DNA from: Octopus vulgaris
Taxonomy: Eukaryota
Direction of reading: 5' to 3'
DNA: 64,000 bases
NCBI GenBank assembly: GCA_951406725.2
Contig: OX597838.1
Span: forward strand, 30,566,001-30,630,000
The translations under genes and the position numbers were made by a program. The notes under the pieces are model-generated. The model saw nothing but the letters and a program-made list of their open reading frames with translations. It did no database searches and was not told the DNA's origin. Position 1 is the stretch's first letter. Every line of letters begins with the position of its first letter. Shown here piece after piece: positions 13,972 through 64,000 of the stretch.

Positions 13972-14044
13972 GGCGTCTTAGCCTGGTGGTTATCCAATCT
14001 GCTTAACACACAGAAGGTCGTGAGTTCGCAACTTGCTGGAACGT
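13972..14044 (+). pseudogene. tRNA-Val(AAC) pseudogene
   Basis: TCTGCTTAACACACAGAAGGTCGTGAGTTCGC retained; 5' acceptor and D arm corrupted. Confidence 0.75.
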
Positions 14045-14394
14045 CAAATTTTCTTTAGGCGCACGTGTGGCTGTACAGTAAGAAGTGTCCTTCCCAATTA
14101 CATGGTTCCAGGTTCAGTCCCACTGCGTAGTACCTTGGGCTAGTGTCTTATATTTTAGCCTCGGGTGAGCGGATTCGGTAGATGGAAACTGAAAGATAGT
14201 CGTATATATATATATATATATATATATATATATATATATATATATTTTGATAAGCCCGTCGTAAATATATATACTTAAATTACTTCAATATATATATATA
14301 TATATATATCTCCTTATATATATATATATATATACACACACAATTGCATGTTTATCTGTGTGTGTCTTTGTATCAGTGTTTGTCCTCTACCACC

Positions 14395-14745
14395 GTTACG
14401 TTCTGAGTTCAAATTCCGCCGAGGTCGACTTTGCCTTTTATACTTTCGGGGTCGATAAATTAAGTACCAGTCAAGTACTGGGGTCGTTGTGATCGACTGT
14501 CCCCCTCCCCATGAAAATCCAGGCTTTGTGCCTATAGTAGAAAAGATATGAGGTGGCGAGTTGGACGAAATACTTAGCGGCATTTTTCTTGTCGCTAAGT
14601 TCTGAGTTCAAATTCCTCCGAGGTTGACTTTGCTTTTCCTCCTTCGGGGTTCGATAAATTAAGTACCAGTGAAACACTGGGGTCGATATAATCGAGTAGT
14701 CCCCCCACCCAAAGTTTAAGGCCTTGTGCCTTTAGTAGAAAGGAT
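14395..14745 (+). mobile_element. tRNA-derived SINE (family C), two tandem pieces
   Basis: GAGTTCAAATTCC(G/T)CCGAGGT(C/T)GACTTTGC...CGATAAATTAAGTACCAG; many more copies (e.g. 21000-21640, 28578-28995, 38585-38910, 45930-46320, 60315-60700). Confidence 0.8.
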
Positions 14746-14936
14746 TATTATTATTTGATAAATTCTCAATGACTCAGGGAATTGTTGATATTGTCGCTGA
14801 AATATAATATATTAATGGTATAAATAAATAAATAAAAACTTAGAATTAGAAAATTAACGATGAAATAAATAGATAAATACATATAAATAATGGCGCAAGA
14901 ATTAGAAAGCCCTAACCCCATAAAAAAAAATGCTTG

Positions 14937-15009
14937 AGGTTCCAGCGAGTTTCGAACTCGCGACCTTCTGCGTGTTAAGCAGATGTGATAACCGCTACAC
15001 CATGGAACC
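14937..15009 (-). tRNA. tRNA-Val(AAC)
   Basis: Full cloverleaf, A and B boxes, C50:G64, U73, T-run terminator. Confidence 0.92.
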
Positions 15010-15315
15010 ACTTGGCTTCTCAGGCAAATATCTTCATTATTAACTGTTTGTACCGAGAAATTTTAGAAGCAGACTTGGATATTTCGCTCGGTTGTTGTTG
15101 ATATTGTTGGAGGTCGTTGTGGTGGGGACCTATCTACCACCCCTCCCTCCCACTCCCACCCCTCCCTCCCACTCCCACCCCTCCCACCCCTCCCCCCCCT
15201 CCCACAATGATAACAACAAAAACTAGAAGAAAACGTCATCAACAACAATGACGACATCGACAAAAGGAATGAGGGTGGTGGAGTGTTTTTTATATATGAA
15301 AATAAGAAGAAAAAG

Positions 15316-15388
15316 AGCTCCACCAAGTTTCGATCCCACGATCCACTGCGTGTCAAGCAGATCTGATAACTGCAACAACAAAGAATGG
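15316..15388 (-). pseudogene. Decayed tRNA-Val copy (anticodon reads GAC)
   Basis: Reverse complement GCTTGACACGCAG; acceptor and D arms degenerate. Confidence 0.6.
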
Positions 15389-15640
15389 CTTATCTTGACG
15401 GAACACCAAGGAACCTTCATAAGGAACTATGTTACCGATTCACGGACAAACACAGGAAGTGAAAGACATCAGAAATACAAAGATAATCTCGGCGGGAGTT
15501 GAACTCAGAGGACAAACATCCAGAACCAATACAACAGTTTATTCTATCCGACGATCGAATGACTACACCAATCATCTGCCTTAAAAAAAAAAAGGAAAAC
15601 AAAAAACATATAAGGTGTAAAAAAAAAAAAAAAAAAACTT

Positions 15641-15713
15641 AGGTTCTAGCGAGTTTCGAACTCACGACCTTCTGCGTGTTAAGCAGATGTGATAACCACT
15701 ACACCATGGAACC
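15641..15713 (-). tRNA. tRNA-Val(AAC), C6:A67 mismatch
   Basis: Full length with one acceptor mismatch. Confidence 0.82.
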
Positions 15714-60277: not shown

Positions 60278-61626
60278 AATTGCTTTACATTTTGCTAGTA
60301 TATAATCATTTCTATTCTAGGCACAAGGCCCGAAATTTTGGTGGAAGGGTCAAGTCAATTAGATCGACTCCAGTATGCAACTGGTACTTAATTTATCGAC
60401 CCCGAAAGGATTAAAGGCAAAGTCGACCTCGGCGGAATTTGAACTCAGAACGTATAGACAGACAAAATATCTATTTCTTTACTACCCACAAGGGGCTAAA
60501 CATAGAGAGGACAAACAAGGACAGACAAACGGGTTAAGTCGATTATATTGACCCCAGTGCGTAACTGGAACTTATTTAATCAACCCCGAAAGGATGAAAG
60601 GCAAAGTCGACCTCGTCGGAACATGAAGTCAGACCGTAGCGGCAGACGAAATACCGCAAAGCATTTCGCCCGGCGTGCTAACAATTCTGCCAGCTCGCCG
60701 CCATATTTTGCTAGTACATAATACCACCACCTACATTACAGTTGGTATTGCAAACGCTGTTGTTGTCGGCGACGTTCGGTTCCAGTTGTTGTTGTTGTTG
60801 TTGTTACTATTGTGTTGTAGGGTGGGCCCTCTCTGCCGTCACCACCGATGTGGACGGACAGACTCAGCGATATATTAAAATTTGACATTGGAAAATTTGT
60901 CAGTAGAGACAATTGGTTTCAAATTTGTGTACAAGGCCAGCAATTTCAGTGGGAGGAGATAAGTCGCTTACATCAACCACAATGCTCAACTGGTATGTAT
61001 TTTATCACACCCGGCGGAATTTGAACTCAGAACGTAAAGACGGACGAAATGCCGTGAAGCTTCTTACCCAGGGTGCTAACGAATCTGCGAAACTGTATAA
61101 CGGTTTCAATACTCTATTGAATATTCTTTTCCCTTCATTGTGATATGAATATTCTTGAGAGATTGAAAAACTTAACAATCTCTGGTTTCTATTTCTCTCT
61201 CTTTTAAAACTCAGAGAGAAACCTTTGTATGAAATGACGATGAAACCAAAAAAAGTAAAGAGAGAGAAACTGTAGTGCTCCGGATTAAAGGTTCTCTAGT
61301 ATTTACATTCCGTTAGATTCCTAGTTGTTGTTTCTGATCAAACAGACATATAATTAAAGTATGTCAGCCATGACCATCTCATCTTATCAAACAATCCACC
61401 CAAGACTTCAGTATCCAGTGGCCACCACTCTTATTTCTCTTCCAATTCATATTTAGTGAGTCTTAAAGTGTTTGATCTTAGATTTACGACCTGGTCACTG
61501 ATATGTGACATGTGATAAGGCGACATCTTCGATCAAAAATGTTGGGCGCGCTGCTGTCGTTTTTGAAGTTGATGCAAATATATCAACGTCTATTCATATA
61601 AAAGAATAACTCAAAAAGTAAACCTT

Positions 61627-61699
61627 AGGTTCCAGCGAGTTTCGAACTCACGACCTTCTGCGTGTTAAGCAGATGTGATAACCACTACACCATGGAACC
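61627..61699 (-). tRNA. tRNA-Val(AAC)
   Basis: Consensus body. Confidence 0.92.
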
Positions 61700-62246
61700 A
61701 GTTGATAATAATTTATCAACTTTTGCTTTATATAAAAAAAAGTTGTGGGTTGTACAGGGTTTAATGGTTATTTACTTTAAGAAAAGGGAGTGGAATCTCA
61801 GAAATGGTAAATTAACAACAAAAATTAGTTATATTTATTTTCAATTCAGGTTTCAAACCCTGGAGGAGTTGACTTTAACCTCCACGTACTCAGGGTATCA
61901 TAAAATATTGGTAAAATATTGGTTCTTTTGGTCAAATGTACATCGAGTTTATCACCTGGGCTCTTTTTAGAAATATCTGTCTGTGTGTCAATGTGAGAGA
62001 TGAAAATTAAAAGACAGTTCAATATTTATTACGATCAATAATTACCAATAGAACAGGTCATTATAGTATTGACCCCTGAGGATACAGAATAGAAAGTGGA
62101 CTGCAGCAAGATTCGAAATGCTAAGCTCTCCTTGTTAATGTAACCATTTTTGATACTCCACTGTGTTTTGAAAGCTAACTCTGCGTTAAAATCTGCACAA
62201 AATACTTGTGTATGACAAAACAATATCTGATAGAAGGACAGCATCT

Positions 62247-62319
62247 GGTTCCATGGTGTAGTGGTTATCACATCTGCTTAACACGCAGAAGGTCGTGAGT
62301 TCGAAACTCGCTGGAACCT
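62247..62319 (+). tRNA. tRNA-Val(AAC)
   Basis: Consensus body. Confidence 0.92.
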
Positions 62320-63083
62320 AATTGTTTTATACATTATTTGCATTTAGTGCCACCACCCTCATTACTGTTGGTGAGGCAAGGGTTGCTTTTTCTCACCGAC
62401 TTGAACTTGGCATACCAATCACGAGCGGTTCTTTCAGCTATGGCATCCTCTCCATACACAGCACAAATGTCGCGAGCAGCTTTTGCAGCCTTAGAACCTT
62501 GATTAAAGGTGTCGAAAATGCTCGTTTCTCTTAACTTGTCATTCCATTTTAATGATCTGGAAATAAACTAAAATTAACTAAAATTAACTAAAATTAACTA
62601 GAAAAAAAAGATTCCAAAATGATTCAAAAATAGAATTCTTGAAAAAAATAAATTCCAAAATTTAATAAAACGGTGGGAAATTAGTTGCCAACTATTTTGA
62701 CTCATTTGAAATATGGGGCGAAATATCAGAAACTTATTCGTGTATATCACTGGAACCTAACACTTTTAAAGTCATAAATTGCAATAGTAAAGCTGGACAT
62801 ATGTCAAATAAGAAATTAGAGGGAAGTATTCAAATGGAGTGAGATAAATGATTTTCCCAAGATGACATTCAATGAAGTCGAAAATGGGATCTCATGATTG
62901 CGAAGCCAACGATATAACTTATAGATTGGCTGAGCGTATAATAAGGGGTGTAAAGATCTAGACCCATCACAGCAATAACTGAGACAAAAGGTCGTGTACT
63001 ACAAGAACAACATCAACATTTCCAGTATCATGGGGTTGAATGCGGTAGAACCTTGTACAAGCAAAGAAAAAGAAAGTATAATT

Positions 63084-63156
63084 AGGTTCCAGTGAGTTTC
63101 GAACTCACGACCTTCTGCGTGTGAAGCAGATGTGATAACCACTACACCATGGAACC
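63084..63156 (-). tRNA. tRNA-Val(CAC)
   Basis: Full length, U50:A64. Confidence 0.92.
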
Positions 63157-63714
63157 AGTCGGTAACGAAACCCAAATGTTTCTTTAACAAATACAAATGG
63201 TAACTTATACACAGTTTACAGTTGATTTACTTATAAAAAGACAGTGGAATATAAGAAATGGTAATTTAAGAAGTATTTAGTTATATTTATTTATAGTGAG
63301 GGTTTCGAATCCTGTTGGCGTTCACTGCACCTTCCATGTATTCAGATTATAAAATATTGGTCACTTCTTTTGGTGAAATGTACATAGAGTACATCCACTG
63401 GGCTCTCTTTAGAAATATCTGTCTGTGTGTCAATGCTAGAGAGAAGATATTGAGAGAAGATCAATATTCATTTTATCAATATTTATTGCAAAGATCAATA
63501 ATTATCAATAGATCAGGTCATTATTGTATAAACCCTCAATGCATAAAATGGAAAGTGAACACAACTAGGATTCGAAACCCTATACAATTTTTGTTAATTC
63601 ACCGTTCCTGATACACCACTGTGCATTGAAAGCTGTGTACAAGATACAACTTAAATTGTGTGCAAGATACAACTTGTGTATGATAAAACAATATTTGAGA
63701 ACGGTGATGCATCC

Positions 63715-63787
63715 GGTTCCATGGTGTAGTGGTTATCACATCTGCTTAACACGCAGAAGGTCGTGAGTTCGAAACTCGCTGGAACCT
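63715..63787 (+). tRNA. tRNA-Val(AAC)
   Basis: Consensus body. Confidence 0.92.
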
Positions 63788-64000
63788 GACTTTGGTCTAT
63801 ATATTTTGCTCGTACATTAACTCACCGATAGAATTACTGCTGGTACTGCAAGGTGTTCTGTTCCAGTGTTTGTGGCGCTCCACCACCCGGCCGCCACCAA
63901 TGAATATAATTAAACGCAGCCATGAATTAGAGTTTTCCACTTTGAAATTTCTCGTTCGAGACACTCAACATCGATTTCAGATTTTTGCACGAGTTCAGCA

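Follow-up and report, generated by a model that had tools for sequence, protein, structure and literature searches.

A cluster of about 145 tRNA genes, all for valine, in Octopus vulgaris, with three anticodons on one body and probable homogenisation across anticodon classes

The 64,000-nucleotide stretch of the Octopus vulgaris genome analysed here, referred to as the window (positions 30,566,001-30,630,000 of G000:C25, in a genome of 2.8 Gb), contains part of a large cluster of transfer RNA (tRNA) genes for valine. Judged from sequence, this is a valine-only cluster of about 145 genes in which the anticodons AAC, TAC and CAC are carried on one gene body, and the genes are likely to be transcribed and likely to be homogenised by gene-centred recombination and conversion. 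The survey of the cluster took in the window, the 20 kb before it and the 120 kb after it, with window coordinates kept throughout, and genome-wide searches were made by pattern matching on the assembly.

Within the window, ARAGORN and Rfam agree on 59 tRNA genes, all of them for valine (20 AAC, 30 TAC and 9 CAC), and neither program calls a non-valine isotype there. Two degenerate copies, a TAC copy at 31336 and a CAC 3' half-copy at 29273, bring the numbers to 31 TAC and 10 CAC, and these are the approximately 61 valine-only copies (20 AAC, 31 TAC, 10 CAC) counted in an earlier note on this DNA. When up to 22 mismatches are allowed, the window holds 66 copies (31 TAC, 22 AAC, 10 CAC, 2 TAA and 1 GAC). 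The cluster continues past 64000 and spans 13,972 to ~144,400, that is ~130 kb or about 30.58-30.71 Mb of C25; ungapped comparison finds 162 copies at ≤22 mismatches and 144 at ≤8 mismatches from the reference copy (66 AAC, 47 TAC, 31 CAC). Many copies had been described as identical except at position 34, and across the cluster there are 48 such copies, compared over positions 1-72 (33 AAC, 13 TAC and 2 CAC). The CAC copies are more varied, with 2 of 35 matching the reference exactly.

All 59 window genes fit the Rfam RF00005 cloverleaf, scoring 44.6-67.7 bits (cut-off 29) with E-values of 1e-12 to 3e-6, and a reversed-pattern control gave 0 genome-wide matches, so chance matching is ruled out. 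The valine identity bases A35 and C36 are present in 144/144 cluster copies, and all 20 stem pairs together with the invariant bases are intact in 94 of the 144 and in 28 of the 59 window genes. The internal promoter bases of RNA polymerase III (Pol III) are present in the cluster copies, as read from a column table of positions, and 149 of 152 copies are followed within 30 nt by a T4 run, that is, an oligo-T terminator.

Growth of the cluster took place through segmental duplication, in blocks of 2-10 kb, and through local tandem repeats. There are 26 self-matches of at least 2 kb, with blocks of 2-10 kb at 90-99% identity and one of them inverted, and a recent tandem array supplies 16 of the 30 TAC genes of the window; these 16 genes carry C5T and A7T, the resulting U7-U66 mismatch breaking pair 7-66. 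Outside the array, neighbouring genes alternate in orientation in 92 of 129 cases. When 145 copies were clustered by their 80-nt flanks, 31 5' groups and 30 3' groups emerged, 17 and 18 of which have at least two members and form 25 combinations, and the near-identical bodies are spread over about 20 flank families that are mutually barely related. For the 539 gene pairs identical except at 34, median flank identity is 0.56 (5') and 0.53 (3'), compared with 0.51 and 0.52 for shuffles. Beyond the window, two diverged TAC copies whose anticodon stem is altered flank a 4.2-kb inverted duplication of 94% identity (~110525-121423; L015, L016).

Anticodon switching, which the earlier note had proposed, is seen within these families, as 3 of 21 multi-member families contain mixed anticodons. 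The clearest case is the pair 92057 (AAC) and 78193 (CAC), whose flanks are 0.97 and 0.95 identical and which share four private body changes; the other within-family switches are 79866 (TAC) and 68091 (TAC), and both flanks of the three cases are 0.91-0.97 identical. From its flanks, Val-AAC 57605..57677 (Table 1) is likely to be a CAC-to-AAC switch. Mosaic genes (73603, 47789, 99325 and 86035) each join flanks from two families, which places the exchange in or at the gene; for the mosaic in the window, the remaining sides are only 0.57 and 0.51 identical to their counterparts and the junction lies within or at the gene. The mosaics, and bodies that are identical apart from 34 across anticodon classes while standing in flanks near shuffled level, support the homogenisation also proposed in that note.

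Marker bases give an indication of the direction of spread. According to tallies made by hand, A59-A60 is found in 24/24 AAC matches outside the cluster and in 5 of 34 among the outside TAC/CAC matches listed. Cluster TAC genes (n=47) nevertheless carry A26 in 44, U50 in 45 and A60 in 46 cases, and cluster CAC genes (n=31) are intermediate, with A26 in 19 and A60 in 25. Because A59-A60 marks the outside AAC genes and is rare in outside TAC/CAC genes, yet the cluster TAC and CAC genes carry A60, the AAC body is the likelier proximate donor, which suggests that it overwrote TAC and CAC genes inside the cluster and not the reverse. In metagenome contigs, G26, C50 and C60 are found in 8/8 TAC genes and G26 and C50 in 6/6 CAC genes; among the AAC genes, A26 and A60 each occur in 4/17.

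Evidence for activity comes from mutation beside the genes, analysed in 12 flank families with at least 4 members, the tandem array being set aside. The gene itself shows a pairwise diversity of 0.019 and the distal 5' flank one of 0.07, so that bodies are four times more conserved than distal flanks; the values rise to 0.23 for positions 6-20 nt upstream and 0.24 for 1-10 nt downstream. Flank divergence peaks at -11 to -14 in all three anticodon classes, and the same flank profile, with a peak 12-15 nt upstream, is reported for active human and mouse tRNA genes (PMC6130373). Since this is a published mark of active tRNA genes, the cluster genes are probably active and expressed. Several dispersed AAC copies match their source locus through gene and trailer up to the T-run and then continue into an interspersed repeat, the 5' flank not being common; these gene-plus-trailer copies are likely to be retrocopies of pre-tRNA, a comparison made on 12 pairs chosen by eye, 8 of them AAC. 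The trailer of one dispersed CAC copy is like that of cluster gene 137861, although the two bodies differ at 7 positions. Such fusions of a tRNA-Val gene and 3' trailer to an interspersed repeat lie near 480 in the 1-kb loci L031, L034, L037, L039, L042, L043 and L045, and likewise in L047, L048, L049, L053, L056 and L059. About four interspersed repeats serve as fusion partners, often after a TA microsatellite, and the arrangement presumably resembles U6/LINE-type chimeric retrocopies.

The pattern searches for GTTTCCG, AAC, TAC/CAC and GAC genes miss genes altered in the fixed letters of a pattern, and the assembly is possibly incomplete; within these limits no GTTTCCG-type valine gene was found in the assembly, where a 5'-half pattern with one mismatch gave 20 matches, none of them such a gene, and the sole GTTTC match (L003) is not a tRNA. 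A body-independent pattern found 83 AAC matches, all with the cluster-type anticodon arm and T-arm (59 in the cluster and 24 outside), and the cluster body is thus the only AAC body detected in the genome. A pattern on anticodon loop and T-arm gave 107 TAC/CAC matches, 100 of them listed, and other TAC/CAC bodies sit on C11, C19 and elsewhere on C25. Another is that of a Val-CAC gene on C20, which has full pairing and a terminator, looks intact and has two apparent retrocopies elsewhere; these three are the only A73 type found outside the cluster. In metagenome contig L067, a CTCGC-stem CAC gene resembling it lies next to AAC and TAC genes, so the C20-type CAC lineage is likely to be old. A genome-wide Rfam search (63 candidates scored, 34 matches) was unsuitable as a census. 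Smaller valine clusters lie at C19:28.62-28.64 Mb (TAC/CAC only, with a different T-loop), C23:14.45 Mb (AAC and TAC) and C25:19.02-19.035 Mb (AAC and a distinct CAC type).

Near-single-body valine sets also occur in unrelated metagenome contigs. A metagenome scan aimed at GGT-start AAC genes found 17 loci (15 distinct), with a similar TAC or CAC gene nearby in 12 and all three anticodons in 4; because the pattern selected this body, the scan shows the existence and not the frequency of such sets. In contig L071, AAC and CAC genes are identical outside 34, and in L070 the three anticodon genes differ by 1-2 bases. When contigs were sorted by assembly prefix into seven inferred groups and compared together with this genome (8 groups, 30 genes; L072, L073, L076, L080 and L081 left out), different anticodons within a group were on average 4.0 bases apart (41 pairs) and the same anticodon between groups 7.5 (136 pairs), and the nearest relative was an own-group gene of another anticodon for 19 genes and a foreign gene of the same anticodon for 8, with 3 ties. 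A valine body starting with GGTTC, with U32 and U73 and common to several anticodons, predates this genome. Proline genes of this genome show a comparable layout: there are 60 pattern matches, of which a 160-kb stretch of C1 has 32 and a 12-kb stretch of C19 has 13, and in the 84 kb examined a single body carries TGG, CGG and AGG, which suggests that isotype-pure clusters are a general layout here, the Pro clusters being smaller and sparser than the Val cluster. An alanine pattern gave 16 matches, TGC and CGC genes only, and is silent on AGC since it caught these two alone.

The processes at work have been described before. Isoacceptor shifts made up 44 of 75 shifts in one survey (PMC3923123), and tRNA gene conversion and remolding are treated in PMC4981973 and PMC7884595. 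As in published isoacceptor shifts and remolding (PMC3923123, PMC3868979, PMC4981973), position 34 is switched synonymously on an otherwise unchanged body; what differs here is that switches and mosaics occur among paralogues of one 130-kb cluster, with many copies per anticodon. Likewise, concerted evolution by ectopic conversion (PMC4981973, citing serine tRNA work in S. pombe) shares with the cluster identical genes in unrelated flanks and a genome-specific paralogue body, whereas the framing in that source concerns paralogues of the same anticodon and homogenisation here reaches from one anticodon class to another and is seen again in several organisms. Metazoan tRNA-Pro also has one stem-motif set for all three anticodons (PMC9023262, Table 1). 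Valine tRNAs of human, mouse and silkworm (PMC9023262; PMC9976931) agree with the cluster in the GUGU D-stem, U13-U22, the UYYGC anticodon stem, A35, C36 and C38, but have GUUUCCG instead of GGUUCCA in the acceptor stem, CCCGG or CUGGG instead of GUGAG in the T-stem, and A73 instead of U73; for gene number, C. elegans is reported to have 32 Val genes (PMC13010820). One body with three anticodons is not new in kind, and because Pro here and Val in several other organisms show the same layout, the cluster is mostly an ordinary process at large scale, explained by duplication, synonymous anticodon switching and concerted evolution, and probably active.

The discriminator base is an oddity of the body, one that the earlier note does not mention. 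Of the 144 cluster copies, 130 have T at position 73 and 9 have A, the bases after 73 being variable, and T73 is also found in 20/20 AAC copies outside the cluster and in 29 of 31 metagenome genes. A73 has been called a conserved, universal valine determinant, although the same source mentions that it was without effect for wheat valyl-tRNA synthetase (ValRS) on a viral mimic (PMC9976931). Since no other AAC body was detected, U73 weakens the A73 rule more than it weakens the membership of the cluster in tRNA-Val. This base, which other organisms share, would revise the stated identity rule if charging is confirmed. Nematode valine tRNAs also appear to end in U73. It is possible, though we hold it doubtful, that an invertebrate group has rewritten valine tRNA identity, with nearly all valine tRNAs ending in U73, one body homogenised across three anticodons by gene-centred recombination and the lone A73 CAC gene left as a relic; this would imply a ValRS that ignores or prefers U73. 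NSUN6 methylation of C72 by way of U73 was considered and rejected, as pairs 2:71 and 3:70 are opposite to those that are preferred (PMC6409601). In the open literature, with subscription papers and tRNA databases outside the search, no paper was found on this cluster or on invertebrate U73 valine tRNAs.

In the mechanism we favour, ValRS would read A35 and C36, the reported valine identity elements (PMC9976931), and not position 34, leaving the wobble base free to switch, whether through point mutation, conversion or crossover; transcription by Pol III would raise mutation beside the genes, while conversion and purifying selection would keep the bodies alike, with the AAC body as the presumed recent donor for the TAC and CAC genes of the cluster. 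Several observations weigh against homogenised, active genes. Partner changes occur across 49 of 242 genes and 54 of 240 spacers, so that there is no excess per junction, and enrichment holds only per base (73 nt for a gene against several hundred for a spacer). Conserved bodies are predicted by conversion and purifying selection alike, and the two are not separated here. Among stem variants, pairing is retained in 24 of 58 events, compared with 35% expected (p = 0.2); the number is 48 of 83 when recurrent 50-64 changes are counted, and selection on stem pairing among rare variants, a candidate signal, was dropped as not significant once these are set aside. The upstream diversity excess per anticodon (AAC p 1e-18, TAC 2e-6, CAC 8e-4) carries p-values that treat alignment columns as independent, the matched sources of the AAC retrocopies are loci outside this cluster, 8 of the 30 genes compared between groups are nearer to a same-anticodon gene of a foreign group, and a tree of 67 72-nt sequences, built without cluster singletons and without two duplicate contigs, has no reliable support.

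Birth and death under strong purifying selection alone, with duplication, anticodon switches by point mutation and little conversion, would account for the many decayed copies (18 of 162 exceed 8 mismatches), for the segmental duplications, for the scarcity of mixed families and for two of the switches being C-to-T transitions. We nevertheless think it unlikely: mosaic genes carry the flanks of two families, and A26, U50 and A60 are near fixation over ~20 unrelated flank families and three anticodons, where TAC/CAC genes elsewhere in this genome and in other organisms have G26, C50 and C60, and such a parallel spread of new states is not easily given by selection alone. The idea that the cluster is a mostly silent tRNA-derived repeat array, translation relying on a few Val genes elsewhere, could draw on the broken pair or invariant base in 50 of 144 copies, on U73 as a departure from the reported A73 element and on the 190 Val pattern matches, far above Pro (60). 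The transcription-type hypermutation found in the flanks of AAC, TAC and CAC genes alike, the conservation of the bodies relative to distal flanks, the T-runs downstream of nearly all copies and the lack of another AAC body to rely on make it very unlikely.

The earlier note had instead read the cluster as a lineage-specific takeover: the AAC and CAC genes would descend from a TAC-type gene, with selection acting against GAC. This reading is very unlikely as well. It fits the lack of a GTTTCCG-type gene in the pattern search of the assembly, a check that the note had called for, the uniform AAC body and the 0 GAC matches genome-wide (body-independent pattern on anticodon loop and T-arm), and the GGTTC acceptor stem may, at depth, have a TAC origin. 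The marker bases, however, favour AAC as donor, and the same AAC body type stands beside TAC/CAC genes in unrelated contigs; the pairing of GGT-start AAC genes with a similar TAC or CAC gene at 12 of 17 metagenome loci is close to the ancestral single-body state that the note had itself set against its proposal. Its contrast with human bodies specific to an anticodon does not agree with the published human Val tree, where AAC and CAC are intermixed with one UAC gene among them (PMC3868979). A full decoding set from one lineage is correct within the cluster, but not genome-wide, where other TAC/CAC bodies persist, for example the A73 CAC gene with its 19 differences. Similarly, there is no intact GAC copy, but this is not evidence of selection: judged by the A-to-G changes found at the remaining 15 A positions, one expects 0.37 independent events or 0.55 copies among 66 AAC genes, and with an expected count below 1 the zero is unremarkable, so GAC avoidance was rejected as a sign of selection. 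Avoidance of G34 in such codon boxes is established, and the cluster itself is not a demonstration of it.

Taken as a homogenised set of probably active genes, the cluster offers a clean natural test bed, in which ~20 flank families let switches, gene-centred exchanges and transcription-linked mutation be mapped within one locus.

Table 1. Positions of the features discussed, in window coordinates unless a genome position is given
Feature	Position	Strand	Basis or remark
tRNA-Val cluster, window part	14937..63787	mixed, mostly alternating orientation	59 genes (20 AAC, 30 TAC, 9 CAC)
Val-AAC with the commonest body (common to 33 AAC, 13 TAC and 2 CAC copies), U73	41659..41731	+	sequence comparison
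Val-AAC in a flank family of 4 CAC and 3 AAC genes	57605..57677	-	3' flank 0.94 and 5' flank 0.75 identical to CAC gene 63156
Val-CAC, same flank family as Val-AAC 57605..57677	63084..63156	-	flank clustering
Mosaic Val-TAC, 5' flank of tandem TAC family and 3' flank of AAC family	47717..47789	-	5' 0.81 to TAC gene, 3' 0.95 to AAC gene
Val-TAC sharing 0.94 3' flank identity with Val-AAC 20790 (5' flanks 0.58)	24891..24963	-	flank comparison
168-bp tandem array, 16.5 units at 98% identity, one Val-TAC gene per unit	49025..51787	-	repeat and fold analysis
Val-CAC with A60 yet with the G26 and C50 that TAC/CAC genes elsewhere usually have	44238..44310	+	marker bases
Decayed AAC copy, left edge of cluster, 14 mismatches	13972..14044	+	mismatch count
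GAC copy, pseudogene with 19 mismatches and 6 unpaired positions	15315..15387	-	only GAC copy, decayed
Val-CAC of different body	G000:C20:28.6157 Mb (~L055:4225-4297)	-	19 differences, CTCGC anticodon stem, CTGGG T-stem, A73
Pro-only clusters	G000:C1:113.18-113.33 Mb; C19:22.397-22.409 Mb (L082-L090)	n/a	pattern matches

The window holds no long open reading frame (ORF) beyond simple-repeat frames, and its positions 1-13700 are rich in simple repeats (TA, GAT, CCT, ACT and CAC arrays) and contain neither a tRNA nor a credible ORF. Beyond the window, diverged Val-derived copies with a CAA anticodon and 13-17 mismatches lie at 127065, 129891, 132874 and 135866 (L017, L018), and three copies have a CAT anticodon (108850, 123444 and 141322); with their stems broken, the CAA and CAT copies are likely to be pseudogenes.

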